Both the position numbers and the translations under genes were made by a program. Positions 5,148 to 55,688 of a stretch of 64,000 nucleotides of DNA are shown here, piece by piece (the first letter of the stretch is position 1; each line of letters begins with the position of its first letter). Under the pieces are notes generated by a model. The model was given only the letters and a program-made list of their open reading frames with translations, searched no databases and was not told the origin of the DNA. Origin of the DNA: Bacillota bacterium (GTDB lineage: Bacteria > Bacillota > Clostridia > Tissierellales > MES13); contig VENA01000016.1 of assembly GCA_009711785.1 (NCBI GenBank), positions 476-64,475 of the forward strand, written 5' to 3'.

Positions 5148-5864
5148 TTATAAATTAGTAAGTAATTCCCTTAATTTCATTAATATCTTACCATGTATCT
5201 GGGAAACTCTAGATACCGATACCTCTAAAACATCTCCTATTTCTCTTAGGGTAAGTTCTTCCTGATAATAAAGGTTTAATACTATTTTATCCCTTTTAGA
5301 TAGGTTATCTATAGCATTAATAAGCTTTTCTTTCCTTTCTTCAACTAATAGTGCTTCCTCAGGATTTTTAGAGTCCTTATCATCTATTATATCAAGTAAA
5401 TTAAAATCTGAACTATCTCCACCAAAGATAGTCTCTTCTAAGGATATATTAGATAAATTATGCATTGTTTCATATATCTTATGTAGATCCCTTTGACTTA
5501 TATCCATCTCTTTCATTATCTCTTCATCTTTAGGGTCTCTATCTAATCTTTGTTGTAGTTTTCTTTTTACATCATATAATTTATTTAATTTACTCATCTT
5601 ATCCCTTGATACTCTACCAAACTTTCTTAATTCATCTATTATTGTTCCCTTTATTCTTAATCTTGCATAGGCTTCAAATGGTACTTTTTTACTTTCATCA
5701 AATTTCTCTATAGCATCCATCAAACCTATTACACCAATACTTACTAAGTCTTCTTTTTCCATCTCATGACCATCTTTAAGATCCATTTTATCTGCAATTT
5801 GTTTAACAAGGGGTAAGTATTTAGTTACAGTATCTTCCTTTTGATAGGCATTAGAATATCCCAT
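5148..5864 (-). CDS. fliA: flagellar sigma factor sigma-28 (FliA/SigD)
   Basis: Sigma-70 regions 2-4 are recognisable. Region 4 reads ELTLREIGDVLEVSVSRVSQIHGKILMKLR. It lies at the distal end of the fla operon, as in Bacillus. Confidence 0.9.
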   Translation of the reverse strand: MGYSNAYQKEDTVTKYLPLVKQIADKMDLKDGHEMEKEDLVSIGVIGLMDAIEKFDESKKVPFEAYARLRIKGTIIDELRKFGRVSRDKMSKLNKLYDVKRKLQQRLDRDPKDEEIMKEMDISQRDLHKIYETMHNLSNISLEETIFGGDSSDFNLLDIIDDKDSKNPEEALLVEERKEKLINAIDNLSKRDKIVLNLYYQEELTLREIGDVLEVSVSRVSQIHGKILMKLRELLTNL

Positions 5865-5876
5865 AATATCACCCCT

Positions 5877-6563
5877 TTAAATTAATTTATTCTTTCGCTT
5901 TTCTCTCATTTTAACGAATATAAACTGAATAACCTTCTCTCTTATTCTTTCTGGAATATTTATAAACTTAATACCTGTGTGATAAATTACCTTTTCGTTT
6001 CTTATTAATTTTTTTGTTCTACAAATTTCTCCTTTGATTGCTATTTGTATATTAGAATTTTTAAATCCAACTACAATGTTTTTATCTCTATTTAGCTTAT
6101 CAACAGTACTTACCTTCATACCTCCGCCACTTATATCTACAGAATAAGCCCTAATAAACTCATTTTTGTTTTTATCATTTAACATATAATTATTTAAATC
6201 ATTATAATCTAAATTTATATATTCATCATTCTGACTATAAAATATTTCTTGATTATGTTCTATTCTTACATAATTTCTTCTTTGGATTCTCTTAACTTCA
6301 GTTGGCTTTTTTATTTTATATAAAGGTATATTTTCAACTATTTTATCTAAAACCTTAGTTTTGAAACTATAGGCTTGATTTTCATAATAATAAATACATT
6401 CAATATCTATGTCATTATTAAGTGTAATACGCTTTTTATTATCCCAAGGAATAGTTACTAATAAATAATTTTTACCTTCTCCTTGTATTAAACTTGTAGC
6501 TTTCTTTTCATTTTCTAGTGAAAAATCTATTTTACTATTAGTCTTAAATTTAATCTCATTCAT
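5877..6563 (-). CDS. PilZ-domain c-di-GMP receptor, YcgR/MotI-like flagellar brake
   Basis: PilZ motifs RRNYVR (RxxxR) and DISGGG (D/NxSxxG). The ATG at 6563 is preceded by GGGGGA; the ORF-track TTG start at 6578 is less likely. Confidence 0.8.
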   Translation of the reverse strand: MNEIKFKTNSKIDFSLENEKKATSLIQGEGKNYLLVTIPWDNKKRITLNNDIDIECIYYYENQAYSFKTKVLDKIVENIPLYKIKKPTEVKRIQRRNYVRIEHNQEIFYSQNDEYINLDYNDLNNYMLNDKNKNEFIRAYSVDISGGGMKVSTVDKLNRDKNIVVGFKNSNIQIAIKGEICRTKKLIRNEKVIYHTGIKFINIPERIREKVIQFIFVKMREKRKNKLI

Positions 6564-6578
6564 TGTAAATTCCCCCAA

Positions 6579-7448
6579 TTAACCAAAGACTTTTATTAAT
6601 CTGTTGTAAACTTCCTGTATAGAATTTATCTTTTTTAAAGACTTTTTCCCATTTAAAAGTTTATCTGTAATCGAATAGATACACTTACTTGCAAGACATC
6701 TGGGATATCCTAAAACAAAGGGTTGTTGTTTCATTACAGAATTCATAACCCTAACATCATCTAATATATACCCTAAATTATCTAAATTAATATTTAAAAA
6801 ATTTTTAGCAGTTTTTTTCAATGTATTAAACGTTGATTTAGCCATTTTTTCGTTTGGTACCCTATTTATAATTATTTTTATATCCTTTTTTAAATTATAT
6901 TTAGATATTACCTTCATAACACTATAGGCATCTGTTAATGAAGTTGGCTCTGGAGTTGTTACTATTATAAGTTCCTGTGAGAAAGTAACAAAGGATAATA
7001 AATTTTTTGATATTCCAGCACCTGTATCTATCAAAATAGTATCAATATCCTTAAGTTTTAAAAACTCCTTTGCTAACTCTTCTTGTTTATCAACACTTAA
7101 AGTTGTCATTTCTAAAACCCCTGAACCACCTGGTATAATTTTTATTCCCTTAGGTCCTCTAAGTAAAGCATCATTTAAGTCTATATCTTTAAATAATACA
7201 TCATACAGGGTATATTTAGGTGATACTCCTAATATAACATCAATATTTGCAAGTCCTAAATCCGCATCTATTATAAGTACATTTTTCCCTTTTTTTTGTA
7301 GTGTAATTGCAGTGTTTACAACAACATTTGTCTTTCCTACACCGCCTTTACCGCTTGCTATAGTATATATTTTTATATCTTTATTATCATTATCTTTATT
7401 TACTTTAACTAAGTTTCTAAGTTTCTGAGCTTGATCCATCTTCCACAT
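6579..7448 (-). CDS. flhG: flagellar number/placement regulator FlhG (MinD-type ATPase)
   Basis: Deviant Walker A SGKGGVGKTN, located downstream of flhF. Confidence 0.9.
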   Translation of the reverse strand: MWKMDQAQKLRNLVKVNKDNDNKDIKIYTIASGKGGVGKTNVVVNTAITLQKKGKNVLIIDADLGLANIDVILGVSPKYTLYDVLFKDIDLNDALLRGPKGIKIIPGGSGVLEMTTLSVDKQEELAKEFLKLKDIDTILIDTGAGISKNLLSFVTFSQELIIVTTPEPTSLTDAYSVMKVISKYNLKKDIKIIINRVPNEKMAKSTFNTLKKTAKNFLNINLDNLGYILDDVRVMNSVMKQQPFVLGYPRCLASKCIYSITDKLLNGKKSLKKINSIQEVYNRLIKVFG

Positions 7449-25562: not shown

Positions 25563-25985
25563 TTATCTACCTCCATTAATTATATAACCAAATGTTCTAA
25601 GCTTTTTATTAGTTTGCTCTATAAGAGCATTATACTTAATTTGATTTGCAGCTAAATTAGTCATCTCTAAATCAACATCAACATTATTTCCATCACTATT
25701 CATCTGAGTTTTCTTATCTTTAACTGTTTTAGGTTTTATATTATCTATACTACTTATCCCAAAATGTCTTTTGTTAGTGGCATTTAACTTTATTTCATCC
25801 TTACCTAATGCCTTTTTTAACTCATCTTCAAATTTAACCCTATTAGCTTTATAATTTCTCGTATTCATATTTGAAATGTTATTACTAATTGCATTATGTC
25901 TTAAACTAGTTGCATCTAAGGATTTCTTTAATAACTTATATGTAACATCATTACTTCCAGGAAAATCCAAAATAATCACTCCCAA
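25563..25985 (-). CDS. flgB: flagellar basal-body rod protein FlgB (start codon uncertain: TTG 25985, GTG 25979 or TTG 25970)
   Basis: [25 protein letters not shown] rod motif. First gene of the large fla operon. Confidence 0.85.
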
Positions 25986-26174
25986 TACATTCTATCCTCT
26001 ATTTCATTATTCGACAAGTTTTTCATATTTCCTCCAATATATCTTTTATTCTAACATTAATGCACTTTTAAATACAATAATATTTTACAATAAAGTGGTT
26101 AAAAAAAGCAAATAAACTTTTTATTAACAAGTTAACCTATCTTTATTAATTTTTTTACTTAATTTTAACAATTT

Positions 26175-30874: not shown

Positions 30875-31100
30875 TTATGATCCATGTATTCTGTAATTAT
30901 TGTACCAATTTACATAATCAAATAATAGATATTCTAACTCCTCAAAACTTTCAAATATCTTATTAAAACCAACCTCTGTTTTAAATACTTTAAAAGTAGC
31001 TTCTACTACAGCATTATCATAGGGGCATCCTTTTTTACTCAATGAACATTCAATATTAAAGGCTGTTAATAATCCATCTATAGATTTATTTTTAAAATCG
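30875..31100 (-). pseudogene. IS3-family transposase (OrfB, integrase core) C-terminal fragment
   Basis: CSLSKKGCPYDNAVVEATFKVFKTE...YVNWYNNYRIHGS is the conserved end of IS3 DDE transposases. The N-terminal two thirds of the protein are absent. Confidence 0.75.
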
Positions 31101-31104
31101 ACTA

Positions 31105-31802
31105 AAGAAAAAGGATTGCTCCCTTTCCCTCGTCTAAGAACCGTATATGAGAGTTTCCCTCTCATACGGCTCAAGCATTTCTTCACCCTTTCAAGCAGCA
31201 TTTAGTGATTTTAATATCATCCTTCTTTTTGTAAAAGATTCTTTATTTAAGAAGAGGTTTTTAAAAATTTGTAATTTGGGATGACGGATGATTTTTATTT
31301 CTTTCATCTCTATAAGACTATATTCATCTGTCATGAATAACCATCTTTTCATATCCTTTTCATGCCAATATTTATTAAGTCTCCACTAGGTGCTTTTATT
31401 AGGCTATCTACTTTTGACCATTGTTTTAATAAGAGATATAGTGTGTTATTGATGGATGAAAATGCTTGACTTGCAACCACATGTTTATGGTAATTAGACC
31501 ATCCTCTTATCACTTGATTTAATCTAAAAATTAGTTGGGATTGAGTGAGTGCTTTTCCTTATTTAAGAATTATAGTAGAGCATTTTCTTATCAGAGTTTT
31601 TATTGAATTCTTTGATGGTTTAATGATTAATTTCCCTTTAAACTTACGAAATGTCTACCCCAGAAAATGGAATCCTTTATCTATATCAGTAATTATTGTT
31701 TTCTCTTCGGACAAAGTTAATCCTCTGCTTTGAAGAAATTCACTTACCAATATTTTAAGTTCTTCTGCTATTTCTTTTGTATTTGCTGTAATCACAAAGA
31801 GA
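31105..31802 (-). mobile_element. group II intron remnant B: decayed RT/maturase ORF (from just after YADD) plus intact-looking domain V/VI
   Basis: Minus-strand translation FVITANTKEIAEELK...GFHFLG(stop)TFRKFKGKLIIKPSK...LNQVIRGWSNYHKHVV...KYWHEK...IIRHPKL..NLFLNKESFTKRR, with stops and a frameshift. Domain V is GAGCCGTATGAGAGGGAAACTCTCATATACGGTTC at about 31141-31175. Confidence 0.75.
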
Positions 31803-32520
31803 GTAGACCTAGGGAACCTCCCCCTAAGTCTCTCGCAGAACTGTACGTGAACCTCTCAGCTCATACAGCTCCCATTATCCAGCCGCTGTTAAAATGCCTA
31901 ACTTCCAGTGTGCAAACAATTTCTTATCACGTTTTGCTATATTTCCAAGCCAATGTTCTGCTCTACGTCTCGATTTACGTTTCTTATATTTCCTACGAAC
32001 CCATTTAACGAAACATCCATTGATGTACCTTAGTACATCATATATTTCAGACTTGTAAAAGTGAGTGTAATAGTTTATCCAACCTTGTATCTTTCGGTTG
32101 AACATGTTTGCAATAACGTTCAGAGTCTTATCTGATTTTAGTTGCAACTTCCAACTTTTCACTTCTTTTCTTATGGCTTTCTTCGCTTTCCACTCATTGC
32201 TGGCAAGAAATTTGTAAAGAATTTACCAAATTTGTCCTTCGCATGTCTTGGTCTAAATGTATAGCCTAGAAAATCAAAAGATGTGTATTCATGATTACCT
32301 TTACGGTCTTCATCTTTACAATAAACAATTCTAGTTTTCTCTAGATTTAATTCTAGTCCCAATAATGCAAAGCGTTCTTTCAGTCTTCTCAACAGATACT
32401 TCGCTTGTTTTAGTGATACACAGTGCGTTACGCCATCATCAGCATATCTTACCCACTGTATTGTGTAAAATTCTTTTGTCATAAAATCATCAAAAGCATA
32501 ATGTGAAAATAGATTTACAA
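31803..32520 (-). mobile_element. group II intron remnant A: 5'-truncated, frameshifted RT/maturase ORF plus domain V/VI and a 3' end
   Basis: NLFSHYAFDDFM..IQWVRYADDGVTHC...LELNLEKTRIVYCKD...FDFLGYTFRPR (RT domains 4-7), then after one frameshift KAKKAIRKEVKSWKLQLKSDKTL..IQGWINYYTHFYKS (domain X). Domain V is GAGCTGTATGAGCTGAGAGGTTCACGTACAGTTC at about 31838-31871. A domain VI-like helix ends near 31803. Confidence 0.75.
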
Positions 32521-41581: not shown

Positions 41582-41607
41582 TATCGGAGTATAAAAATAA
41601 AAGTTTA
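41582..41607 (-). promoter_or_regulatory. sigma-28 (SigD/FliA)-type promoter of the flgM-flgN-flgK-flgL-fliW-csrA operon: TAAA-N16-CCGATAG
   Basis: The minus strand reads CTAAACTTTTATTTTTATACTCCGATAG, ending about 35 nt upstream of the flgM ATG. Confidence 0.65.
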
Positions 41608-41616
41608 GTTTATTAT

Positions 41617-41646
41617 AAAAAAAAGCAGAAGATAAAAATCTTCTAC
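41617..41646 (-). terminator. Rho-independent terminator after fliY
   Basis: GTAGAAGAT-tttt-ATCTTCTGC followed by TTTTTTTT on the minus strand. Confidence 0.7.
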
Positions 41647-41654
41647 TGTAATTT

Positions 41655-42797
41655 CTATTTAAGCTTTTGTACCCTTTCAGCGGCACTTAGTATATTAGTA
41701 ATCCTTATTCCAAAGTTTTCATTTATTACTACTACCTCTCCTTGGGCTATAAGTTTACCATTTGCATATATCTCTAAGGGTTCTTCTGCAAATTTATTTA
41801 ATTCAACTATAGACCCTGGACTTAATGCAAGTACCTCTTTAATAGATTTTTTAGATCTACCTAATATAACACTTAATTCTAAGGGTACATCTAATATAAG
41901 ATCTAGATTTGACTTTTCATCATTTTTACTTTCTTTTAAAGGAGCAAATTGTGGCTTTTGCACTGTTACATTTTCTTCTTTTATATTACTTGAAGCACTA
42001 CTTAAAGCTACCTCTTCTTTAACCTCTTTTACTTCAGTTTTTACTTCCTCTTTGACTGGTTCTTTTTTAGGTTCTTCTTTTACTTCTTTTACTTCTTTTT
42101 TAGGCTCCTCTTTAGGTTCTTCTTTAGGTTCTTCCTTTTTAGAGCCTCCAGTCATTTTATCTACTATTTCATCTACTGTATCCATTGTAAATAACTGCAT
42201 TATTTCACTATCTATAAGACCTTCAACCGTTAGGTTAAATGAAGTTTTAACCATCTCAGTATCCTTACTAAACTCATCTGGTATACTATCTTCATTACTA
42301 TCCCAAATATTAACATTTGGTGGAGTTATATTTACATCACTTCTAATCATGGTGCTCATAGCAGTTGATGCAGAACCTATCATTTGATTCATAGCTTCAG
42401 ATATTGCACTCATTTCTATCTCTGATAGTTCTTCATTAGGATTAGTTCCATCTCCACCCATCATAAGATTTGCAATTATTGAAGCGTCCCTTATTTTAAG
42501 AGCTAATATATTATTTCCCTTTAATCCTTCACTAAATTCAACTTGTAAAACCACAACCGGTACATTTAAATCATCAGTTACAGATTTTATATCTGTAACT
42601 TCAACCTTAGGTGTATTTATCATAACCTGTTTACCTAATATTGTAGATAAAGCAGTGGCGGCTGTAGCCATTGAAATATTTCCAACTTCTCCTAAGAGGT
42701 CCTTAACTTCATCATCGATATCATTATTTCCATTAACTTCTTCATTTTTATTCAGTAGGGAATCTATTTCTTCCTGTGATAGAAAGTTATCATTCAT
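41655..42797 (-). CDS. fliY: flagellar motor switch protein FliY (CheC-like plus FliN domain)
   Basis: N-terminal MNDNFLSQEEIDSLL, a CheC-like middle (EVGNISMATAATALS), a K/E/P-rich linker, and a C-terminal FliN domain (LDVPLELSVILGRSKKSIKEVLAL..GSIVEL). Confidence 0.9.
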   Translation of the reverse strand: MNDNFLSQEEIDSLLNKNEEVNGNNDIDDEVKDLLGEVGNISMATAATALSTILGKQVMINTPKVEVTDIKSVTDDLNVPVVVLQVEFSEGLKGNNILALKIRDASIIANLMMGGDGTNPNEELSEIEMSAISEAMNQMIGSASTAMSTMIRSDVNITPPNVNIWDSNEDSIPDEFSKDTEMVKTSFNLTVEGLIDSEIMQLFTMDTVDEIVDKMTGGSKKEEPKEEPKEEPKKEVKEVKEEPKKEPVKEEVKTEVKEVKEEVALSSASSNIKEENVTVQKPQFAPLKESKNDEKSNLDLILDVPLELSVILGRSKKSIKEVLALSPGSIVELNKFAEEPLEIYANGKLIAQGEVVVINENFGIRITNILSAAERVQKLK

Positions 42798-43794
42798 CGT
42801 TATCCACATCCTTTTCTACAATATCAACTACTTGTACAGATAATTTATTATTATAAATTCCTGGTTGTACATGAAAATGTAATTGATCTTCTACATACAT
42901 TCTAAGGGGCTTATCAGCACTTTTATCTAATTCTATTACATCACCTAAACTTAAATCTAAAAAGTCATTTACCGTTATCTTTGTTTTACCTAATAATACA
43001 TTTAAATCTACCTTAGATGGCATTATATTACCAGTCAGTGTATTATAATATTCTCCATACTCATCCCGTTCTTCATTTTCAAACCAATGCTGAATGTATA
43101 ATTTATCAATTATATTTTCAACAGCCAAATAAGGTATACAAAGATTCATATAACTTTTACTTTCAGATATTTCAGCTGAAAAGGTAACTAAAGCAACAGG
43201 TTCATTAGGTGACATTATTTGATTTACTTGGGGGTTAGTTTCTATATCATCAAGCTTTGGATCAACCTCTAAAACATCCTCCCAAGCAAGTTTCATATTC
43301 CCTATCATTTCCCCTACTACTTCTTTAATTATATTAGTTTCTATATCTGTAAATCCCCTTATATTTTGTTTATGTTCAGCTGAACCTCCACATAATAAAT
43401 CAATCATTTGAAATCCAAACTGTGGGTTAATCTCTAGAAGTAGAGCCCCTTGTAGTGGGGGCATTTGAAATATAGAAAGCAAAGTGGGATTAGGTATAGA
43501 TTTCATAAATTCTTCATAGGTAACCTGTTCTACTGATATAACATCAACTTTAACATTAGACCTAATTTGTGCTGATAAATAATTAGCAACGATCCTTGAA
43601 TAATTATCATAAATCATCTCTATAGTACTTATATGATCTTTAGATAATTTATTAGGCCTTCTAAAGTCATAATTTTTTATCCTTTGTCGCTCTTCATTTT
43701 CCTGTTCTTTTTCTATTTCCTCTTCATCTATTTCTCCTGAGGAGATGGCGTTTAGTAATTGATCAATTTCCTGTTGCGAAAGTACTTCTCCCAC
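42790..43794 (-). CDS. fliM: flagellar motor switch protein FliM
   Basis: MGEVLSQQEIDQLL CheY-P binding N-terminus, 334 aa. Confidence 0.95.
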   Translation of the reverse strand: MGEVLSQQEIDQLLNAISSGEIDEEEIEKEQENEERQRIKNYDFRRPNKLSKDHISTIEMIYDNYSRIVANYLSAQIRSNVKVDVISVEQVTYEEFMKSIPNPTLLSIFQMPPLQGALLLEINPQFGFQMIDLLCGGSAEHKQNIRGFTDIETNIIKEVVGEMIGNMKLAWEDVLEVDPKLDDIETNPQVNQIMSPNEPVALVTFSAEISESKSYMNLCIPYLAVENIIDKLYIQHWFENEERDEYGEYYNTLTGNIMPSKVDLNVLLGKTKITVNDFLDLSLGDVIELDKSADKPLRMYVEDQLHFHVQPGIYNNKLSVQVVDIVEKDVDNDE

Positions 43795-43806
43795 TGTACC
43801 ACCTCA

Positions 43807-44214
43807 TTATACTTTTTCTAAAATACATTTCTCTAAATTAAGGAAATTTACAATACCATAATCTAATTTTATTATTCCTTCTATTGCTCCTTCATGTTCT
43901 TTTCTTCTTAACTTATCTATTTCATCTTCTTCTATATCTATTACTTCTTTAACTTGATTTACAGAAATACCTATTAATTCTTCTTCCATATTCACAATAA
44001 TAATATGACTATATTCCTCTTCTTTTTTCTCTAATTTAAGTAAACTTCCTAAATCCATTAAAGATATTATATTTCCCCTTAAATTAACTAAACCAACAAT
44101 ATGATCTGGAGATTTAGGTACATTTCTTACTTCTAAGGGCTTACTTATTTCACTTACAAACTCTGTATTTATAGCATAGTACTGATTATTTAATTCAAAT
44201 ACTAAAACTTGCAT
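43807..44214 (-). CDS. cheW: chemotaxis coupling protein CheW
   Basis: 135-aa CheW-like domain (VFELNNQYYAINTEFVSEI...VNLRGNIISLMDL). Confidence 0.85.
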   Translation of the reverse strand: MQVLVFELNNQYYAINTEFVSEISKPLEVRNVPKSPDHIVGLVNLRGNIISLMDLGSLLKLEKKEEEYSHIIIVNMEEELIGISVNQVKEVIDIEEDEIDKLRRKEHEGAIEGIIKLDYGIVNFLNLEKCILEKV

Positions 44215-44228
44215 AAAACCACCCTTTC

Positions 44229-44591
44229 TTAGCCTAAAGCTTTATTTAATGCTTCTAATACCCTATCTGCTTGAAATGGTTTAACAACAAAGTCTGAAGC
44301 CCCTTCTTTTATAGCTTCCATAACCATTGCTTGCTGTCCCATTGCGCTACACATAATAACTTTAGCATCTCCATTTAACTTTTTTATCTCTTTTAAAGCT
44401 TCTATACCATCCATCTCTGGCATTGTTATATCTAATGTAACTATATCAGGATTAGTTTGTTTAAAACTTTCTACAGCTTCCTTACCATTTGCAGCTTCAC
44501 CTACAACTTCATATCCATTGTTTGTTAATATATCTTTAACCATCATTCGCATAAATGCAGCATCATCAACAACTAGTACCTTCTTTGACAT
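44229..44591 (-). CDS. cheY: chemotaxis response regulator CheY
   Basis: MSKKVLVVDDAAFMR...DITMPEMDG...VVKPF. The ATG at 44591 is preceded by AAGGAG. Confidence 0.95.
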   Translation of the reverse strand: MSKKVLVVDDAAFMRMMVKDILTNNGYEVVGEAANGKEAVESFKQTNPDIVTLDITMPEMDGIEALKEIKKLNGDAKVIMCSAMGQQAMVMEAIKEGASDFVVKPFQADRVLEALNKALG

Positions 44592-44604
44592 TAAAATCAC
44601 TCCT

Positions 44605-45207
44605 TTAAATGTTTATGCTTGAAATTATTGTATCTAAAGAATTTGGACTCGGTATAAAAAATAAGTATCCATTTATTTTTTTATTATCTTCTATAAATAT
44701 ATTTTCAATAATTAATTGTTTATCATCTATATATCCAGATTCTATATATGCTGTTGTTAATATAGCTCCAAACATGTCCTTAGAAAACTGAGGAACACTT
44801 GAAACCATATTTAAATTAAGCATCCTTGTTAAAGCATTTATATATGAGGAAGCTATAATATTTACAACTTCCTTTAATGCTGATACTACCATATCATCAA
44901 GCTCTTTTAAATCTTCTTTTCCTAAAAGTAATTTAGCTAAATGTAGTGCATATTTTTCTTCTAATACAAATAAAAATATACCCGGTGCATCCCCTAATAC
45001 TTTTAGTGAGATTGCTATAACAGGACTTTCCTCTTCCTTAATATTAGTGAAAATCTCGTCATATGACAATAGTCTTACGGTAGGAACTTCCATATCTATT
45101 CTTTTATTTAAAAGCTGCGCTAAGGAAGTAGCAGCATTTCCTCCGCCAATATTTGTTACCTCTTTTAAAAAATCATAATGTATTGGTGTTAACTCTGAAA
45201 AACTCAA
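44605..45207 (-). CDS. cheC: CheY-P phosphatase CheC
   Basis: LKEVTNIGGGNAATSLAQLL and the second repeat ALKEVVNIIASSY are typical of CheC. Confidence 0.85.
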   Translation of the reverse strand: MSFSELTPIHYDFLKEVTNIGGGNAATSLAQLLNKRIDMEVPTVRLLSYDEIFTNIKEEESPVIAISLKVLGDAPGIFLFVLEEKYALHLAKLLLGKEDLKELDDMVVSALKEVVNIIASSYINALTRMLNLNMVSSVPQFSKDMFGAILTTAYIESGYIDDKQLIIENIFIEDNKKINGYLFFIPSPNSLDTIISSINI

Positions 45208-45224
45208 TCTATTACCACCTCACG

Positions 45225-47195
45225 TTAAGTAGTTAATTTAGGTACATCTAATATAAGTGTTACATTACCATCACCTAAAATAGTTGCTCCGATATAATAT
45301 CCAGCACCCTTTAATGAAGCACCTAAATCCTTAATAACTATTTCTTTTTCTCCTTCAATCTTATCAACCATTAAGGCAAATATTCCTTGTCCAACCTTTA
45401 AGATTACCATTACCTTTTCCTTTGTATCATCTTCTTTAATATCTAGTTTTTCATTTAATCTAATAACAGGTACTGCTTCATTATTATACATATATACTTC
45501 ATCATTATAAGACATCTTAATGTCTTCTTCTTTAACATCAATTATCTTTTCAATAAATTCAAGTGGTATAGCAAAGTTTTCATTATCAACACATACAAGT
45601 ATAGATTTAATTATTGAAAGTGTCAATGGAAGTTCTATAGTAAATGTCGAGCCCTTTCCTACTTCACTTTTAACATCTATATTACCACCAAGATTTGATA
45701 TCTTTCTTTTTACTACATCCATACCTACTCCACGGCCTGAAAGGTTTGTAACCTCTTCATTAGTTGAAAAACCTTGATTAAATATCATTCTAACTATTTG
45801 ATCATCATCTAATCCTTCAACGTCTATATTCTTTTCTATACATTTTTCTTTTATTTTATCAGGGTCTATTCCCTTACCATCATCTTCTATTTTAATTATA
45901 CCTTTATTACCCTCTTGATAGGCAATCATTTTTACAGTTCCAGCAGGGTCTTTTCCATCAGCTATTCTTTCTTCTTCGGTTTCTATACCATGGTCTATGG
46001 CATTTCTTATTAAGTGTACCATAGGATCTCCTAGTTCAGTTATAACTGTCCTATCTAGTTCTGTTTCTTGACCCTTTATTACTAACTCAACCTTTTTACC
46101 TAACTGATTAGATACATCACGAACCATACGTGGGAATCTATTAAATACTGTATCTATAGGTACCATTCTCATTTGTAAAACTAAGTCTTGTAAATTAGTA
46201 GTTATCCTATTAACTTGTTCTAATGTTTCATTTAAATCATTTATTTTATAAGCACTACTTATATCTTCTATTCTAGTTCTATGAATAACTAATTCTGAAA
46301 CTAAGTTCATAAAGTTATCTAATTTATCTAAACTTACCCTTATAGACTGATTAATTTTAACTTTATCTGAGACTTGTTTTTCATTTTTCTTTTTAGGCTT
46401 TTTCTTACCCTTATTTTTCTTTTTATTATCTGTTTTAACGTTTTTAGGTTTATCTTTTACTTTTATTTGTTCAACTGAAACCTTCTCTATTTCAGATATT
46501 TTATCTATTAAACTCTCTACCTCTTCTGTATCTAATTTAGAGACATAGAAAAGTTCAATATCATAATCAAATTCCTCATCTTCAATTTCTTCAATTGAAG
46601 GTATAGATTTTATTATTTCACCGTTTTCTTCTAATCTTTTTATAATCATATATGCCCTTGCTGATTTTATTAAACAACTTGAGGCTATAGTTATATCAAT
46701 TTTATATGTATTATAATCCATGCCCTTTGCCCTTTGGGCTACGCTAAGTTCATATTGATCTAAAACTTCAGTGGCAGCTACTTCATCTTCTACTTTTTTA
46801 GAAACGTCTTCTTTTTTCTCTACATTACCTTCAGCTATTTTATCTAGCTTGTCCATTAAAGAATCATTTCTAAAGTCTCCTTCACCTTCAATGATATTAT
46901 CTACCATATCAGATAATGTATCTAGACATTCAAATAACATATCTACTGTATCTGAATTAACTTTTAACTGTTCACTTCTAAATAATTCTAAGATGTTTTC
47001 CATTCTATGGGTTAACTCTTCCATATTAGGAAATCCCATAGTTCCAGACATCCCCTTTAAGGTATGAGCAACTCTAAAAATTTCATTCATAGTGTCTATA
47101 TCTTCTGGGTCTTGTTCTACTTTTAATATTTCATCATTAAGCTTTTGTAAATTTTCTTTAGATTCTTCTATAAACAAAGTTAAATATTTTTCCAT
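45225..47195 (-). CDS. cheA: chemotaxis histidine kinase CheA
   Basis: HPt motif RVAHTLKGMSGTMGF, an HATPase domain (DDGKGID, GRGVGMDVV) and a C-terminal CheW-like domain. Confidence 0.95.
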   Translation of the reverse strand: MEKYLTLFIEESKENLQKLNDEILKVEQDPEDIDTMNEIFRVAHTLKGMSGTMGFPNMEELTHRMENILELFRSEQLKVNSDTVDMLFECLDTLSDMVDNIIEGEGDFRNDSLMDKLDKIAEGNVEKKEDVSKKVEDEVAATEVLDQYELSVAQRAKGMDYNTYKIDITIASSCLIKSARAYMIIKRLEENGEIIKSIPSIEEIEDEEFDYDIELFYVSKLDTEEVESLIDKISEIEKVSVEQIKVKDKPKNVKTDNKKKNKGKKKPKKKNEKQVSDKVKINQSIRVSLDKLDNFMNLVSELVIHRTRIEDISSAYKINDLNETLEQVNRITTNLQDLVLQMRMVPIDTVFNRFPRMVRDVSNQLGKKVELVIKGQETELDRTVITELGDPMVHLIRNAIDHGIETEEERIADGKDPAGTVKMIAYQEGNKGIIKIEDDGKGIDPDKIKEKCIEKNIDVEGLDDDQIVRMIFNQGFSTNEEVTNLSGRGVGMDVVKRKISNLGGNIDVKSEVGKGSTFTIELPLTLSIIKSILVCVDNENFAIPLEFIEKIIDVKEEDIKMSYNDEVYMYNNEAVPVIRLNEKLDIKEDDTKEKVMVILKVGQGIFALMVDKIEGEKEIVIKDLGASLKGAGYYIGATILGDGNVTLILDVPKLTT

Positions 47196-47219
47196 AACAC
47201 TACCTCCACCCCCATCTAT

Positions 47220-48002
47220 TTACTTCTTACGATATAGAAAAGCATTAATTTTTTCAAAGTTTAATTCTCTATAGTTAATTATATTCTCAGTAGCACCTAC
47301 AAACAATAAACCACCGGGTACTAAAGCATCATAAAACTTTTTATATATTTTATTTTTCGTTTCCATTTTAAAATATATAAGTACATTTCTACATACTATA
47401 AGATGGAAATTATTTTCGTATCTATCTAATATTAAATCATGTTTTTTAAAGGTAACTTTTCTTTTAATATCATTATCTAAATGATATTTGCTACCCTTTT
47501 TTAAAAAGTATTTATCAATATCCTTATTATCTAAATTTTTTATTTCATTTTTAGAATACACACCTTCTTTAGCCCTATTTATTATACTATTATCTATATC
47601 TGTTGCTAGTATATAATCCTTATTTTTTCTATTTAATCTATCAAGTATAATACTTATAGAATAGGGTTCTGCTCCTATTGAACAGGCTGCACTCCAAATA
47701 TTTAATTTATTATATTTAGGTATCAATATATCTTCTATCTTTTTTTCAAGTTCATCAAACATAGCTTTATTTCTAAAAAATTCTGATACATTTATCGTTA
47801 TATAATCTAAAAATTTAAGTCTTTCTTTTGGGTTATTACTTATCATTTTAGAATATTCCCTTAAATTATTAGCTCCACTTCTATTCATAACAGAGAGTAT
47901 CCTTCTATGAAGTTGCTTAGAATTATAAGCTGTTAAATCAATATTTAGGTTTTCAAAAACCCATTTTTCAAAAAAATCAAAATCATTATTCAAACTTATC
48001 AC
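47220..48002 (-). CDS. cheR: chemotaxis protein methyltransferase CheR
   Basis: ITINVSEFFRN and IWSAACSIGAEPYS motifs. Confidence 0.9.
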   Translation of the reverse strand: MISLNNDFDFFEKWVFENLNIDLTAYNSKQLHRRILSVMNRSGANNLREYSKMISNNPKERLKFLDYITINVSEFFRNKAMFDELEKKIEDILIPKYNKLNIWSAACSIGAEPYSISIILDRLNRKNKDYILATDIDNSIINRAKEGVYSKNEIKNLDNKDIDKYFLKKGSKYHLDNDIKRKVTFKKHDLILDRYENNFHLIVCRNVLIYFKMETKNKIYKKFYDALVPGGLLFVGATENIINYRELNFEKINAFLYRKK

Positions 48003-48030
48003 CTTCTATAACTTTGTCTATTAGTAAAAC

Positions 48031-48519
48031 CTAAATATTTTTAATACCTTTACCTATTTGTTTAATAGAAACCTCAAATTTCTCCAAATCCACAATCATC
48101 GTTCTTCCTAATGTTCCCCCTACATCTTCAGCTTTTATAGGTATTTTCATATCCTTTAGTATTTCCTTTACTGCTTCTATATTTCTTTGTCCAATATTTA
48201 ATTTAGGGTTTTTATCTGAAAATTGGAACATGCTTGCTCCTCCTGCTATTTTTGCCACTAGCCTATTTTTTCTAGCACCATTTTTAACTAGCTTTTCTAT
48301 CATTTCAGGCAGTGCCAAATCAGCATACTTTGCAACCTTATTAACCTTTCTATATTGAGAGCTATAAGGAAGCATAATATGGGATAAACCTCCCACTTCA
48401 CTTTTTTTATCATATACTGCTATGCCAACACAGGAGCCCAAACCAAGAGTAATGAGATTGTTTGGAGACTTAGTTATTTTATAATCAGCTATACCAACCT
48501 TTATATCCTCTTTCATCAT
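48031..48519 (-). CDS. cheD: chemoreceptor glutamine deamidase CheD
   Basis: 162 aa. LGSCVGIAVYD and GLSHIMLP motifs are typical of CheD. Confidence 0.9.
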   Translation of the reverse strand: MMKEDIKVGIADYKITKSPNNLITLGLGSCVGIAVYDKKSEVGGLSHIMLPYSSQYRKVNKVAKYADLALPEMIEKLVKNGARKNRLVAKIAGGASMFQFSDKNPKLNIGQRNIEAVKEILKDMKIPIKAEDVGGTLGRTMIVDLEKFEVSIKQIGKGIKNI

Positions 48520-48534
48520 TTCCTCCTGATTTTT

Positions 48535-48999
48535 TTATGAATCTTTTATAACACCCTTTAGCTCTTCTTTTTGTGAGCTTGAAAATATTTTATTAGGATT
48601 TAAATAAATAATTATGTCTTCTTCCTCTTTTATAAAACCCTTTAAGTATTCCTTTTTTATTTCAGTATTTACTGAATCTTTTTTATGTATTTTGTCTTCT
48701 TCTATATCCTTAATTTCTAATACATCATCAACCATAAGACCTAATCTATGATCTTCCCATATAATAACAACTATTTTATTATCTCCTGTATCTAAATAAC
48801 CTTCTTTATAAAGTCTTTTATTTAAATCTATTACTGGTAATATTGACTCTTCATAAGACATAATGCCTATAATATGTTCTGATGTTTCTGGTAATGCCTT
48901 TGGCTTTGTATATTCTAAAATTCTTTCAACATTATAAACATCGATAGCATATTTTCTATCCTGAGTTTTTAATATAACAACTTTATTATGTTTTTGCAT
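48535..48999 (-). CDS. cheW: chemotaxis coupling protein CheW (second copy, first gene of the operon)
   Basis: 154-aa CheW-like domain (KYAIDVYNVERILEY...). Confidence 0.8.
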   Translation of the reverse strand: MQKHNKVVILKTQDRKYAIDVYNVERILEYTKPKALPETSEHIIGIMSYEESILPVIDLNKRLYKEGYLDTGDNKIVVIIWEDHRLGLMVDDVLEIKDIEEDKIHKKDSVNTEIKKEYLKGFIKEEEDIIIYLNPNKIFSSSQKEELKGVIKDS

Positions 49000-49028
49000 A
49001 GTGACACCCCCTATTATCTTTATATATT

Positions 49029-49061
49029 AAAAAAACATAGCAGATTTCCATAAATGCTATG
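49029..49061 (-). terminator. intrinsic terminator forming the expression platform of the c-di-GMP riboswitch
   Basis: CATAGCA-N12-TGCTATG followed by TTTTTTT on the minus strand, about 30 nt upstream of the cheW SD and ATG. Confidence 0.7.
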
Positions 49062-49160
49062 GTAATCATTACAGCAACCAGGCTATCATAGTATAAATAC
49101 CTTAGACCCTAGGCTTTGCGTCCTAACTTTTCAATTAGTTTGCTTATTAAATTGGACCTT
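49060..49160 (-). promoter_or_regulatory. c-di-GMP-I (GEMM-I) riboswitch aptamer
   Basis: Minus-strand RNA: GGUCCAAUUUAAUAAGCAAAC-UAAUU-GAAA-AGUUA-GGACGCAAAGCC-UAGGGUCUAAG-GUAUUUAUAC-UAUGAUAGCC-UGGUUGCUGUAAUGAUUACC. It contains the GEMM-I cores GCAAAC and GGACGCAAAGCC, a GAAA tetraloop, and a tetraloop-receptor-like UCUAAG/UAUGA pair. Confidence 0.8.
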
Positions 49161-49181
49161 TAAAATAAGTAATCTTCTATT

Positions 49182-49209
49182 AATATATATTTTCTACATT
49201 TTTAGTCAA
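49182..49209 (-). promoter_or_regulatory. sigma-A-type promoter TTGACT-N16-TATATT for the riboswitch/che operon
   Basis: Read on the minus strand about 20 nt upstream of the first aptamer helix. Confidence 0.5.
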
Positions 49210-49502
49210 AATCCTTCAAAAAATACTAAGAATTAAGGCTACATAATACTATAATCGTCTTTCTTTTATAAATCTTTAGGGTTATATAGCATTTTCTTAA
49301 TATTAACAAAGATTATTATAGCATTTATTAAACTTAAAAGAAATACTATTAACAAATGTTAACAGTATTTTCAATAAAATAATACCCTTTGATATTAACC
49401 TAAATCAAATTTTTAATATTTACTCTCCTTTATTTAAGTTCACCCATTACTAATTTTACTAAATCTTTGTTAACTTAAAGAAAATTTTAAGTAAAATTTA
49501 AA

Positions 49503-52068: not shown

Positions 52069-52875
52069 TTAGTTATTCATTTCAGTAGCTTTAGTTACAA
52101 ATTCAGCAATTTTTCCGTTTTCTTTTAATTTATCTAAAGTTTCGTTTACAGCTTTTACTAAAGATTCATTACCCTTTTTAATAGCAACGGCTGAACCACT
52201 ATCTCCAGTATTTAAAGCTATATCTGAAAGTACTATACTATCATTTTTCTTTGCATAGGATTCAGCAACGGGTTTTTCTGCTATCACTGCATCTATCTTT
52301 TTCTGCATAACCTGTAGCATTATATCTGATATCTTACCAAGTCCTACTATTTTAGCCTCTTTAAAGTTTTCTTTAGCTATCTTTTCTTGAGTTGTTCCCT
52401 TTTGTACACCGATTTTTTTATCATTTAAATCATTCTTTGTTTTAATCTCATCAGCTTTTTCCTTACTTACTACAACACCTTGTTTTGCTGTATAATATAC
52501 CTTTGAAAAATCAACACTTTTCTTTCTATCCTCTGTTGGAGTCATACCTGCTATAACAATATCTATTTTCTTTGCATTTAGTGCTGCTAATAATCCTGCA
52601 AACTGCATATCCTTAATTTCAAGTTCCACACCAAGATCATTTGCTATCTCCTTAGCTATATCAATATCAAAACCAACAATAGTATCTTTACCATCTATTT
52701 CTTTATGGAATTCATATGGTGGATATGCTGCACTTGTTCCTATAACTAACTTACCCTTTTTCTTAATCTTTTCTACTTTAGTTAATTCTTTTTCTTCCCC
52801 ATTTTGACAAGCTACCATTGTAAATACTAAACATGTTATTAAAATTATCGATAATACCTTTTTCACATTAACCAC
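52069..52875 (-). CDS. amino-acid ABC transporter substrate-binding lipoprotein (family 3 SBP; polar/basic amino-acid type)
   Basis: Lipobox FTMVAC, then the typical [14 protein letters not shown]...[11 protein letters not shown] fold motif. The probable start is the GTG at 52866 or 52875, after GGGAGA. Confidence 0.85.
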
Positions 52876-52982: not shown

Positions 52983-53205
52983 AAAAACGCCCCTTATATC
53001 TAAGAGACGAATAATATCCGCGTTACCACTCTAGTTAAAGCAATACTTTGCTTTCACTTAATTCATTAACGGCTGATACCGGATTCTTTTACTTATTTTC
53101 AAAGAATCTCTTCATGGACTCTTTTCATTATAGTCTTTGTTACTAGACTCACACCAACTCTAGCTCGCTTTAACTCATTCTATAACTACTCTTCCAATCG
53201 AAAGA
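52983..53205 (-). promoter_or_regulatory. T-box riboswitch leader, promoter-distal copy (2 of 2)
   Basis: The minus strand has Stem I elements (AGCGAGCTAGAGTTGGTGTGAGTCTAGT with AG bulge and distal-loop GGTG), the T-box sequence AACTAGAGTGGTAACGCGG (53018-53036), and the terminator CGTCTCTTAGATATAAGGGGCG plus a T-run. The candidate specifier AGA is at 53120-53122. Confidence 0.8.
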
Positions 53206-53226
53206 TTTGTTTATTAAATTGTATAA

Positions 53227-53450
53227 AAAAAACGTCCCCTATAAAAGAGACGAATAATATCCGCGTTACCACTCTAGTTAAAGCGATACTTTGCTTTCAC
53301 TCAATCCATTAACGGCTGATACCGGGTTCTCATACTTATACTTTCAAAGAACCTCTTCATGGACTCTCTTCATCATAGACTTTGTACTAGACTCACACCA
53401 ACTCTAGCTCGCTTTAACTCATTCTATAATTACTCTTCCAATCACTAGAT
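53227..53450 (-). promoter_or_regulatory. T-box riboswitch leader, promoter-proximal copy (1 of 2)
   Basis: Near-identical to copy 2. T-box AACTAGAGTGGTAACGCGG (53261-53279), terminator CGTCTCTTTTATAGGGGACG plus T8, candidate specifier AGA at 53365-53367. Confidence 0.8.
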
Positions 53451-53492
53451 TTTTTAATGTTTATTCAATATGTTTTATATTTATTAATTAAT

Positions 53493-53621: not shown

Positions 53622-55688
53622 TTATATATATTTTTTAGAAAGTAATTTCTCAAAGGTAGTCTCACTAACAGGTTTACTGAAAAAATAACCTTGTAACATG
53701 TCACACATCTTATCTTTAAGGAAATGTAAATGTTCATTTGTCTCTACACCCTCTGCAACAATATCAACACCTAAACTCTTAGCCATAGATATTATAGCAG
53801 TTATAATCTTTATATTTTCTATTTTTTTAATATCCATTATAAAGGATTTATCTATTTTTAGTTTATTTATATTAAGCTCCTTTAACTTATTTAATGAAGA
53901 ATACCCAGTCCCAAAATCATCCATGGATATTTTTATTCCAAGCTTTTTAAGTTTATTTAAATTTATAATTATTCTATCAAAGTTTTTAGCACAAACAGAT
54001 TCTGTTATTTCAAGTTCTAAAAACTCAGAAGAAAGTTTTGTTTCTTTTAAGATATTTATAACTATATCGGGAAAATCTAATTGCTCTAATTGTTTACTAG
54101 ATATATTTACAGCCATAAAAATAGGTTTAAATCCTTGATCTATCCATTTTCTATTTTGAATACATGCATTCTTTAAAACCCAATTTCCTATTTTATAAAT
54201 CATTCCACTGCTTTCAGCTATGGGTATAAACTTATCTGGCGGTATAAAACCCATTTCTTCACTTTCCCATCTAAGTAATGCCTCTGCCCCTATAACCTTT
54301 CCTGTTTTAGTACTTACCACTGGCTGATATTTAATATATAGCTCATCATTTTCTATTGAATTTCTTAATTTATTTTCTATAGTAAATTGTTCCCATAGTT
54401 CTGAGTTAAAATTCTTATCATATAGTTTGATTTTATCTTCTTTACAATCTTTAGCCTTATACATAGCAGTTTCAGCATTCTTTATAAGAAAACTAGAGTT
54501 TAATCCATGGTAGGGATATAAAGAAAGTCCTATACTAGCAGATAAATATATATGATGTGTATCTATTATAAAGGGCTTATTAAATAAATCTAATATCCTT
54601 TTAGATATTTCAAATATCTTCCTAATATTTGTACTTTCATATAATAAAATAAACTCATCTCCACCAAACCTAGATATAACATCAAACACATCGTCATATT
54701 CCTTAAGTCTAATTGAAATTTCTTTTAATATTAAATCCCCTACTATATGCCCTAAATTATCATTTATTTTACTAAATCCATCTATATCTATTAAAAGTAT
54801 TGATACTTTTTCATTCTTTTTTATTTTCTTATCAAGTTCGTTTATGAAAAAGTCTTTATTATATAGTTTAGTTAAACTATCATTATCTGTTAAAAACTTA
54901 TACTTTCTCTTTATGTCTAATTCCTCTGTTACATCATTAACAATTGTATGTAATAATACTTTATCATTTATTTTAATTGGTTCAATGAAAGCTTTAACAT
55001 CCCTAATTTCACCATTTGAAAGTTTAGTTTTTAAACCATAAGCTCTTTTTTTTCCTGATTTGACCTTTTTTATTTCTTTGTTTAAATTCTCTTTACTTAA
55101 CACATTTATATCTTCGGTTTTTAACTTCAAAAGTTCACTTTTACTATATCCATAGTATTTACAAGCTGATATATTTGCATCTACTATTTTATTATTTTGA
55201 GGGTCAATTAATAGCATGATTGCATTATTATGTCTAAAAAAGTTTATATATTCCTCTTCTTTTTGAGTTAGTAAATTAAACATCTCACTTTCTTTAGAAA
55301 CATCCCTAATAAAAACATTTAATAAATTACCACTTTCCTTTACAAAGGATATTTCAGCAAGAAAAGAATTTTCATTTGCTTTTTTTAGTAACCACCTAAA
55401 GTTTCTTTTATCCTTAATAATTTTTTCAAAGGCTTTAGTAGTACTTTCATCAATTTTCTCATCATAATATATAAGATCATAAAAGTTTTTACCCACTAAC
55501 TTATATTTGTTAGAATATTCAAACAAATTTAAAGCTAGTTTATTGCACTCTATGATTTTTTCTCTATCTAGTATAATCACCGCTTCAGGGAACTTATTAA
55601 AAACTTTTTTATAATAATCATCGTTTAATAAAAATCTATTATTTAATTGTGTCATCATACTTCCCCCTTTGTTGTAAAAACCTTTCAT
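53622..55688 (-). CDS. PAS-PAS-GGDEF-EAL protein (c-di-GMP synthase/phosphodiesterase)
   Basis: RFGGDEFILL (intact GGDEF), EALLRW (EAL), DDFGTGYSSL, and two N-terminal PAS-like segments. Confidence 0.9.
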   Translation of the reverse strand: MKGFYNKGGSMMTQLNNRFLLNDDYYKKVFNKFPEAVIILDREKIIECNKLALNLFEYSNKYKLVGKNFYDLIYYDEKIDESTTKAFEKIIKDKRNFRWLLKKANENSFLAEISFVKESGNLLNVFIRDVSKESEMFNLLTQKEEEYINFFRHNNAIMLLIDPQNNKIVDANISACKYYGYSKSELLKLKTEDINVLSKENLNKEIKKVKSGKKRAYGLKTKLSNGEIRDVKAFIEPIKINDKVLLHTIVNDVTEELDIKRKYKFLTDNDSLTKLYNKDFFINELDKKIKKNEKVSILLIDIDGFSKINDNLGHIVGDLILKEISIRLKEYDDVFDVISRFGGDEFILLYESTNIRKIFEISKRILDLFNKPFIIDTHHIYLSASIGLSLYPYHGLNSSFLIKNAETAMYKAKDCKEDKIKLYDKNFNSELWEQFTIENKLRNSIENDELYIKYQPVVSTKTGKVIGAEALLRWESEEMGFIPPDKFIPIAESSGMIYKIGNWVLKNACIQNRKWIDQGFKPIFMAVNISSKQLEQLDFPDIVINILKETKLSSEFLELEITESVCAKNFDRIIINLNKLKKLGIKISMDDFGTGYSSLNKLKELNINKLKIDKSFIMDIKKIENIKIITAIISMAKSLGVDIVAEGVETNEHLHFLKDKMCDMLQGYFFSKPVSETTFEKLLSKKYI

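Follow-up and report, generated by a model that had tools for sequence, protein, structure and literature searches.

A class-I cyclic-di-GMP riboswitch and its terminator ahead of a Clostridia-class chemotaxis and rotor-switch operon

Organization of the operon and its surroundings

The window (the whole 64-kb stretch of DNA that was analysed, to whose numbering all positions refer) carries on its minus strand a chemotaxis and rotor-switch operon extending from cheW to fliY. Its gene order, cheW-cheD-cheR-cheA-cheC-cheY-cheW-fliM-fliY, had been proposed by a model from the letters and translated reading frames (hereafter the sequence-only reading) and was found to be exact, with confirmation by Pfam. 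The operon and its boundaries comprise the following features.

48997-49012, minus strand: cheW ribosome-binding site AGGGGG (49012-49007) and ATG start codon (48999-48997)
41655-48999, minus strand: regulated operon, cheW to fliY, from gene calls and Pfam
48535-48999, minus strand: cheW
48031-48519, minus strand: cheD
47220-48002, minus strand: cheR
45225-47195, minus strand: cheA
44605-45207, minus strand: cheC
44229-44600, minus strand: cheY
43807-44214, minus strand: second cheW
42790-43794, minus strand: fliM
41655-42809, minus strand: fliY, with CheC-like and FliN-C domains
41616-41647, minus strand: operon-end terminator after fliY, a 10-bp stem (41647-41624) with T8
41582-41607, minus strand: sigma-D-like promoter for flgM, TAAA (41607-41604), N16, CCGATA (41587-41582)

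Neighboring genes in the operon overlap or are separated by no more than 28 nt, and no convincing internal terminator was found in the cheW-fliY unit. The terminator at its end is followed by the sigma-D-like promoter and then by flgM-flgN-flgK-flgL-fliW. A weak sigma-D-like motif, TAAA-N15-GACGATTA, is also seen at 49252-49278 (minus strand), upstream of the riboswitch promoter described below; both labels refer to the sigma-D consensus. The operon lacks fapA and cheB, of which cheB is present in all of the other homologous operons that were fetched and fapA in most of them. As the spacing between cheD and cheR is only 28 nt, no remnant of cheB is left there.

The interval between argH and cheW, which had been described as a gap of 530 nt devoid of ORFs, indeed holds no ORF longer than 29 aa, although its length is 528 nt. 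The argH gene has its own terminator at 49529-49508. Farther upstream, two complete T-box leaders lie in tandem at 53000-53210 and 53243-53454 (minus strand; 137 and 143 bits), preceding a gene for an SBP_bac_3 binding protein (52069-52875), argG and argH. In each, AGA followed by G is located just 5' of the UCC closing the specifier loop and is interpreted as an Arg specifier; the pair appears to be a tandem arginine T-box serving an operon for arginine biosynthesis.

Two proteins with a predicted link to c-di-GMP are encoded in the window. One is a PAS-PAS-GGDEF-EAL protein of 688 aa (53622-55688, minus strand), 4.5 kb upstream of the riboswitch, in which GGDEF (aa 342), EAL (aa 469) and the canonical Asp of GHIVGD (GHxxGD) are intact and GGDEF is not preceded by a nearby RxxD site; the protein is predicted to turn over c-di-GMP. 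Hypr enzymes reportedly carry Ser in place of this canonical Asp of GGDEF proteins. The other is a YcgR-type PilZNR-PilZ protein (5877-6578, minus strand), encoded between a FlhG-like ATPase (6579-7448) and a sigma-28-like factor (5148-5864), and is predicted to provide the same flagellar system with a further c-di-GMP input, acting at the level of protein. Two matches to domain V/VI of group II introns (31097-31174 and 31798-31873, minus strand; 52 and 56 bits) were identified 700 nt apart between flagellin-modification genes and fliD. Only short ORFs of 95-108 aa are found nearby, so these introns may be ORF-less or degenerate.

The riboswitch and its terminator

The leader of cheW contains the features listed here, in the direction of transcription.

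49182-49209, minus strand: candidate sigma-A promoter, TTGACT (49209-49204), N16, TATATT (49187-49182), with 10 of 12 consensus matches
49070-49154, minus strand: GEMM-I (c-di-GMP-I) aptamer, from the RF01051 match, the fold and compensatory pairs
within the aptamer, minus strand: P1a/P1b hairpin, with P1a GC/GC, P1b CUAAUU/AGUUAG and a GAAA loop (49132-49129)
within the aptamer, minus strand: P2 hairpin with the receptor motif UCUAAG (49106-49101) and UAUGA (49090-49086)
within the aptamer, minus strand: equivalents of the ligand-contacting bases, A20 at 49144 (consensus G), A47 at 49117 and C92 at 49074
49040-49072, minus strand: alternative hairpin predicted by folding, a putative antiterminator, with the core GAUUACCAUA/UAUGGAAAUC (49067-49043)
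49029-49061, minus strand: intrinsic terminator, CAUAGCA (49061-49055), 12-nt loop, UGCUAUG (49042-49036) and U7 (49035-49029)

The whole 64-kb window was searched with cmscan against Rfam 15, and a c-di-GMP-I (RF01051) match was obtained at 49154-49070 on the minus strand with 81.3 bits and an E value of 2e-14, against a gathering score of 35. The match spans model positions 1-87 of 87 with no non-canonical pairs. The sequence-only reading had recognized a GEMM-I aptamer on this strand and had named an RF01051 search as the check, which it has therefore passed. No second cyclic-dinucleotide match was detected in the window by the Rfam scan, even at E≤0.1. All of the motifs that had been picked out by eye, namely GCAAAC, the GAAA-capped hairpin, GGACGCAAAGCC and UCUAAG...UAUGA, were found and aligned to conserved consensus positions, with the two P2 motifs falling on consensus CUAAg and uAuGa (a predicted tetraloop receptor). 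The equivalent of A47 lies directly 3' of GGACGC and that of C92 within UUGC. When the aptamer core (49143-49076) was folded alone, the two GEMM hairpins were obtained. The aptamer is located 71 nt upstream of the cheW ATG on the same strand, a 5' regulatory position.

Stability of the leader was not in excess of that of shuffled sequences (z = +1.03), although this measure says little about a riboswitch rich in A and T. An extended P1 that would include GGU:ACC was considered and found to be unsupported; in the MES16 relative described below its 5' side has changed from U to A and from C to A without compensation. Folding predicts that the 5'-terminal AUUAC pairs with GUAAU, a small AU hairpin lying between the two strands.

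The terminator, which had been proposed as CATAGCA-N12-TGCTATG-T7, has exactly that sequence at 49061-49029. Its stem begins nine nt past the end of the RF01051 model and forms a 7-bp hairpin, which is weak by folding (-6.7 kcal/mol, 2 G-C pairs). A generic terminator scan did not pick up this hairpin because of the 12-nt loop and the presence of only 2 G-C pairs. Sites with a perfect stem of 7 bp or more and a run of 6 or more T behind it were counted on both strands of the real 64 kb and in shuffled windows. Five distinct sites were found (six matches, two being overlapping registers of one hairpin) compared with 0.93 per shuffled window, and one of the five is the hairpin nine nt past the aptamer. 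The occurrence of a terminator-type hairpin directly after the aptamer is not due to chance. Sixteen nt separate the end of the U7 tract from the cheW ribosome-binding site, and neither an ORF nor an internal promoter was found between the terminator and cheW. The element is thus a genuine class-I cyclic-di-GMP riboswitch with a transcription terminator.

The TTGACT-N16-TATATT promoter that had been suggested for the leader is present in the sequence with 10 of 12 matches, but sites of this kind occur in the window at chance density (13 vs. 10.4 expected, no enrichment). It is identical in the MES16 relative and lies ~20-30 nt upstream of the aptamer, similar to the TTGGAA-type promoters of other relatives, and transcription from it is predicted to start near 49176-49174. 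An extended -10 element, TGcTATAAT, is found farther upstream at 49323-49315 (minus strand). Directly upstream of the latter is a near-perfect palindrome with 14-nt arms, AAATACTGTTAACA-tt-TGTTAATAGTATTT (49370-49341, minus strand), the core of which is conserved in MES16; the two may represent an operator and a second, regulated promoter of the che leader. Transcripts from either candidate start would contain the riboswitch. Copies of AAAUGCUAU at 49326-49317 and 49294-49285, complementary to the 5' arm of the terminator, were set aside as chance occurrences in an AT-rich region or as -10-like sequences.

The flgB leader was described by the sequence-only reading as having no aptamer, and no RF01051 match precedes the flgB-like gene (25563-25985). 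This leader contains a 16-codon ORF (25976-26026, minus strand) with a strong GGAGG ribosome-binding site, which ends at the annotated flgB start, and upstream of it are the fliS terminator (about 26203-26170) and a TG-extended -10 element.

Distribution and conservation in relatives

Sampling around this organism is sparse. A homolog of the window CheW with 95% identity is encoded by the Bacillota bacterium MES16 metagenome-assembled genome, and the only other one is 43% identical. The MES16 genome was the only relative obtained by scanning genome contigs for CheW, and a protein search gave three matches. A scan of metagenomes with the CheW alignment gave 11 loci, with the riboswitch in only one (L019). 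The MES16 leader is 96% identical to that of the window, with no change over a 70-nt stretch from P2 to U7; the differences are located in the P2 loop, in one P1b pair (G-U to A-U) and in the 5' flank.

Homologous operons from eleven further distinct lineages were fetched by means of CheA homologs (50-58% identity). Their gene order is (fapA)-cheW-cheD-cheB-cheR-cheA-cheC-cheY-cheW-fliM-fliY followed by flgM. In three other uncultured lineages (L002; L008/L016/L019; L013) the operon is headed by an RF01051 match, always before fapA; the L016 leader is identical to that of L008, and the L019 match has the same score and position. No RF01051 match was present at the homologous operon of L003/L004, L005, L007, L012, L014 or L015, nor at that of Clostridium tetani (L010) and C. 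pasteurianum (L011). With the window included, the riboswitch is therefore found at 4 of 12 distinct homologous operons.

The aptamers of the relatives score 73-81.5 bits and each is directly followed by a hairpin and a U run. Among five distinct aptamers, 99% of the cells are paired and 6 pairs show compensatory changes, giving a covariation score of 0.41 vs. 0.24 in shuffles, of which 0 of 500 reached 0.41. With the pairing partners slid by 1-3 columns, the score was reduced to 0.04-0.07 and only 21-42% of the cells were paired. The covariation and conserved pairing indicate that the aptamer and its placement are under selection.

In the L002, L008 and L013 leaders the 5' arm of the terminator, GCUCUUUUUU, is complementary to the 5' strand of the aptamer, AAAAAAGGGC, which includes G20, G21 and C22. 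This helix has a predicted energy of -9.9 to -10.5 kcal/mol, vs. about -3 in shuffles, of which 0-5 in 500 reach such a value. For transcripts ending just before the 3' arm of the terminator it is the minimum-free-energy fold. As modeled, its formation would exclude both the binding pocket and the terminator, which is classical OFF logic and parallels the kinetic picture of Cd1 (PMC9262584). The terminators of these relatives are unusual U-run/A-run stems in which GCUCUUUUUU is paired with AAAAAGAGC (L002 4090-4160, L008 3565-3640, L013 3152-3250). Their 3' arm copies the conserved 5' strand of the aptamer, AAAAAGGGC, so that the aptamer consensus dictates the terminator sequence.

Position 20 and the identity of the ligand

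The base just 5' of GCAAAC, at 49144, is the equivalent of G20 in Vc2 and was found to be A, a point missed by the sequence-only reading. In the RF01051 alignment it is a mismatch to model position 11 (G), aligned at top posterior probability. Position 20 is also A in MES16, and is G in the che-operon leaders of L002, L008 and L013. On its sequence, the window element is assigned to the GEMM-I fold but lies outside the strictly c-di-GMP-selective subtype (e.g., Vc2), which is defined by G at position 20; it has the A that defines GEMM-Ib. G20 reads G-alpha of the ligand by its Watson-Crick edge, C92 pairs with G-beta and A47 is the intercalating base (PMC6140456). An A is found at position 20 in cGAMP riboswitches (PMC6140456, PMC6456294), and the A20G change switches a Geobacter cGAMP aptamer to c-di-GMP (PMC6456294). 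An A here marks variants that are bispecific or of the cGAMP type, although it is insufficient on its own for cGAMP selectivity, with both ligands being bound by Vc2 G20A (c-di-GMP 53 nM, cGAMP 120 nM) and by Cbe 1-2, a natural A20 aptamer of Clostridium beijerinckii (c-di-GMP 30 nM, cGAMP 463 nM) (PMC6140456).

Because 49144 is A, exclusive sensing of c-di-GMP by the window aptamer is not assured, and the G20-to-A change could loosen its ligand selectivity. The physiological ligand is nevertheless probably c-di-GMP, as this is preferred in the Clostridium precedent and as the window encodes both a GGDEF-EAL enzyme and a YcgR-type PilZ protein. Owing to the A at position 20, binding would probably be nanomolar rather than picomolar, with some cross-reactivity to 3',3'-cGAMP.

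There is a slim chance that the physiological ligand is 3',3'-cGAMP, in the manner of GEMM-Ib, or that both dinucleotides serve equally, in which case motility would be tied to a source of cGAMP such as a Hypr-GGDEF enzyme or a CD-NTase. The A at 49144 would fit such a ligand, as would the bispecificity of Vc2 G20A, the A of natural cGAMP riboswitches and the conversion of the Geobacter aptamer by A20G; however, the A20 aptamer from Clostridium prefers c-di-GMP ~15-fold, the sole GGDEF protein of the window has the canonical Asp (GHIVGD) and not the Hypr Ser, a PilZ flagellar brake is encoded in the window, and the leaders of the relatives at the same operon position have G20. It is similarly doubtful that the G20-to-A change was adaptive and turned the che-fliM-fliY leader of this lineage, its platform rebuilt, into a sensor that responds to both dinucleotides or prefers cGAMP. 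If it did, a second cyclic dinucleotide (from, e.g., a CBASS CD-NTase or a Hypr-GGDEF enzyme) would gate the synthesis of chemotaxis and rotor-switch proteins in a Firmicute.

Expression platform and direction of switching

Folding of the tail of the leader predicted, in addition to the terminator, the alternative hairpin at 49072-49040. Its outer pairs join GUA (49072-49070) with UGC (49042-49040), which are the first three bases of the 3' arm of the terminator, and the two structures are mutually exclusive with predicted energies of -7.0 to -7.2 kcal/mol for the alternative hairpin and -6.7 kcal/mol for the terminator. The alternative hairpin is the minimum-free-energy fold of the tail whether the aptamer is enforced or free, and it is transcribed before the terminator; read-through would therefore be the default, and ligand could regulate only by adding termination. 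The two differ by 0.3 kcal/mol irrespective of whether the aptamer or a 3-bp P1 is enforced, and constraining the aptamer, P1 or the terminator shifts the balance by only that amount. In view of this lack of energetic coupling, ON and OFF cannot be told apart by computing folds.

Overlap of the alternative hairpin with the aptamer is limited to the flank at 49072-49070, with none in the core, and no antiterminator overlapping the aptamer core was found in the window leader. The antiterminator of the relatives (aptamer 5' strand vs. terminator 5' arm) was tried in the window and rejected, as its -2.7 kcal/mol was equalled or beaten by 229 of 500 shuffles. The predicted platform of the window, with two mutually exclusive hairpins of near-equal energy, is thus neither Cd1-like nor like that of the relatives. 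It is known from two sequences only, which are 96% identical and hence provide no covariation evidence for it.

The nucleotides just 3' of C92 are shared by the GUA:UGC pairs and by any closing helix of the bound aptamer, for which the candidates are A17-U18-A19 with U93-G94-U95 or the 5'-terminal AUUAC with GUAAU. From this competition for the same nucleotides we infer an OFF direction, and with precedent taken together with the platform this direction is likely. In the proposed mechanism, the hairpin at 49072-49040 would form first in the absence of ligand, sequestering the 5' arm of the terminator and the UGC of its 3' arm, and RNA polymerase would proceed into the operon. Binding of ligand would shut the junction and pull UGUAAU (49073-49068), just 3' of C92, into the closing helix. 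The released UGC could then nucleate on GCA (49057-49055), which the alternative hairpin presents unpaired in its loop, the terminator would fold and transcription would halt at the U7 tract. High c-di-GMP would consequently lower the amounts of chemotaxis proteins and of C-ring FliM/FliY, adding to the post-translational brake exerted by the YcgR-type PilZ protein of the same flagellar region. Taken as a whole, a functional GEMM-I aptamer joined to a weak terminator as a c-di-GMP-driven OFF switch of the che operon is the reading we favor, with reasonable but not high confidence.

An ON switch built from the same aptamer and terminator appears unlikely. In that model, the tail UAAUGAUUACC (49070-49061) would invade P2 through its 5' strand when ligand is absent, leaving the terminator free, and ligand would lock P2 and release the tail into the alternative hairpin, allowing read-through. 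The tail does match the 3' strand of P2, CUAUGAUAGCC, at 7 of 10 positions and forms an imperfect duplex of -12.2 kcal/mol with the 5' strand, the alternative hairpin survives enforcement of the aptamer, and the characterized A20-type riboswitches of Geobacter, including those of pilM and pgcA, are ON switches (PMC9262584, PMC6456294). However, P2 is local, forms first and is retained in the minimum-free-energy fold of truncated transcripts, and the ligand-free leader is predicted to read through rather than to terminate. Moreover, clear OFF logic is seen in the leaders of relatives at the same operon, the class I riboswitches of C. difficile all act as OFF switches (PMC6200980), and induction of C-ring genes by c-di-GMP would oppose the known direction of this signal.

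It is highly improbable that the element is a relic, or that the hairpin and U7 form a constitutive partial terminator with no response to ligand. The thermodynamic uncoupling of the aptamer from the choice of hairpin, the weakness of the terminator and the absence of the riboswitch from 8 of 12 distinct homologous operons, by which it is dispensable, could all be expected of a relic, but the aptamer scores on par with those of the relatives (81.3 vs. 73-81.5 bits) with all pairs intact, and the stretch of 70 nt from P2 to U7 is 100% identical in MES16 although its flanks vary.

Comparison with known systems

The sequence-only reading held that the architecture matches that of Cd1, the riboswitch of the C. 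difficile flgB leader (Sudarsan 2008). This is correct in outline, as both consist of a GEMM-I aptamer with a terminator directly after it, placed in front of a motility operon in a member of the Clostridia class, but it does not extend to an antiterminator overlapping the aptamer core, which was not found in the window. The antiterminator of Cd1 uses the 3' strand of the aptamer (PMC9262584), compared with an overlap at 49072-49070 only in the window. A stable P1 was not detected in Cd1 (PMC9262584), and none is convincing in the window either. Cd1 is an OFF switch (PMC9262584), the direction expected for the window riboswitch. The targets differ, being the flgB operon in C. difficile and the che-fliM-fliY operon in the window, where flgB has no aptamer.

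A parallel is also provided by the fapA-che-fliM-fliY leaders of the relatives, in which the same aptamer family stands before the same operon with an immediate terminator and a sigma-A-like promoter about 35-45 nt upstream. In these leaders position 20 is G, the terminators are strong (-12 to -18 kcal/mol) and the antiterminator is formed from the aptamer 5' strand, whereas in the window position 20 is A, the terminator is weak, the alternative hairpin is local, and fapA and cheB are lacking. The A20-type GEMM-I riboswitches of Geobacter and Clostridium share with the window the fold and the A at the position that reads the alpha base of the bound dinucleotide. Those of Geobacter regulate genes for exoelectrogenesis and pili, the characterized ones being ON switches, and the Clostridium example prefers c-di-GMP. 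Bc1, of the class-I riboswitches that precede genes for methyl-accepting chemotaxis proteins in the Bacillus cereus group (PMC11218506, PMC6366702), likewise combines a c-di-GMP-I aptamer with a terminator platform before a chemotaxis gene in a Firmicute. It controls a single receptor gene through a long platform with two terminators (PMC11218506), compared with core signaling and C-ring genes in the window.

Biological significance

The GEMM motif was named for motility genes. Already in 2007, cheW, cheY, fliM, flgB and genes for methyl-accepting chemotaxis proteins were listed as being preceded more than once by GEMM (Weinberg 2007, Table 2; PMC1950547), and reviews place class I before motility and chemotaxis genes (PMC6366702). 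The association with cheW, cheY and fliM is therefore not new, and the window riboswitch, which can be found by standard Rfam-based annotation, leaves knowledge of the class unchanged. A literature search found no experimental study of a riboswitch preceding a clostridial che-fliM-fliY operon. Of modest interest are that position 20 varies (A20) between leaders of a single operon, that the platform has been rebuilt and that the riboswitch is patchily distributed.

In some Clostridia-class lineages, it is the chemotaxis and C-ring operon, and not the flgB operon as in C. difficile, to which RNA connects a cyclic-dinucleotide signal. The connection is patchy, being present at 4 of 12 distinct homologous operons, and the natural pairs that it provides at one operon (G20 vs. 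A20, and two platforms) form a comparative set for the tuning of threshold and selectivity.
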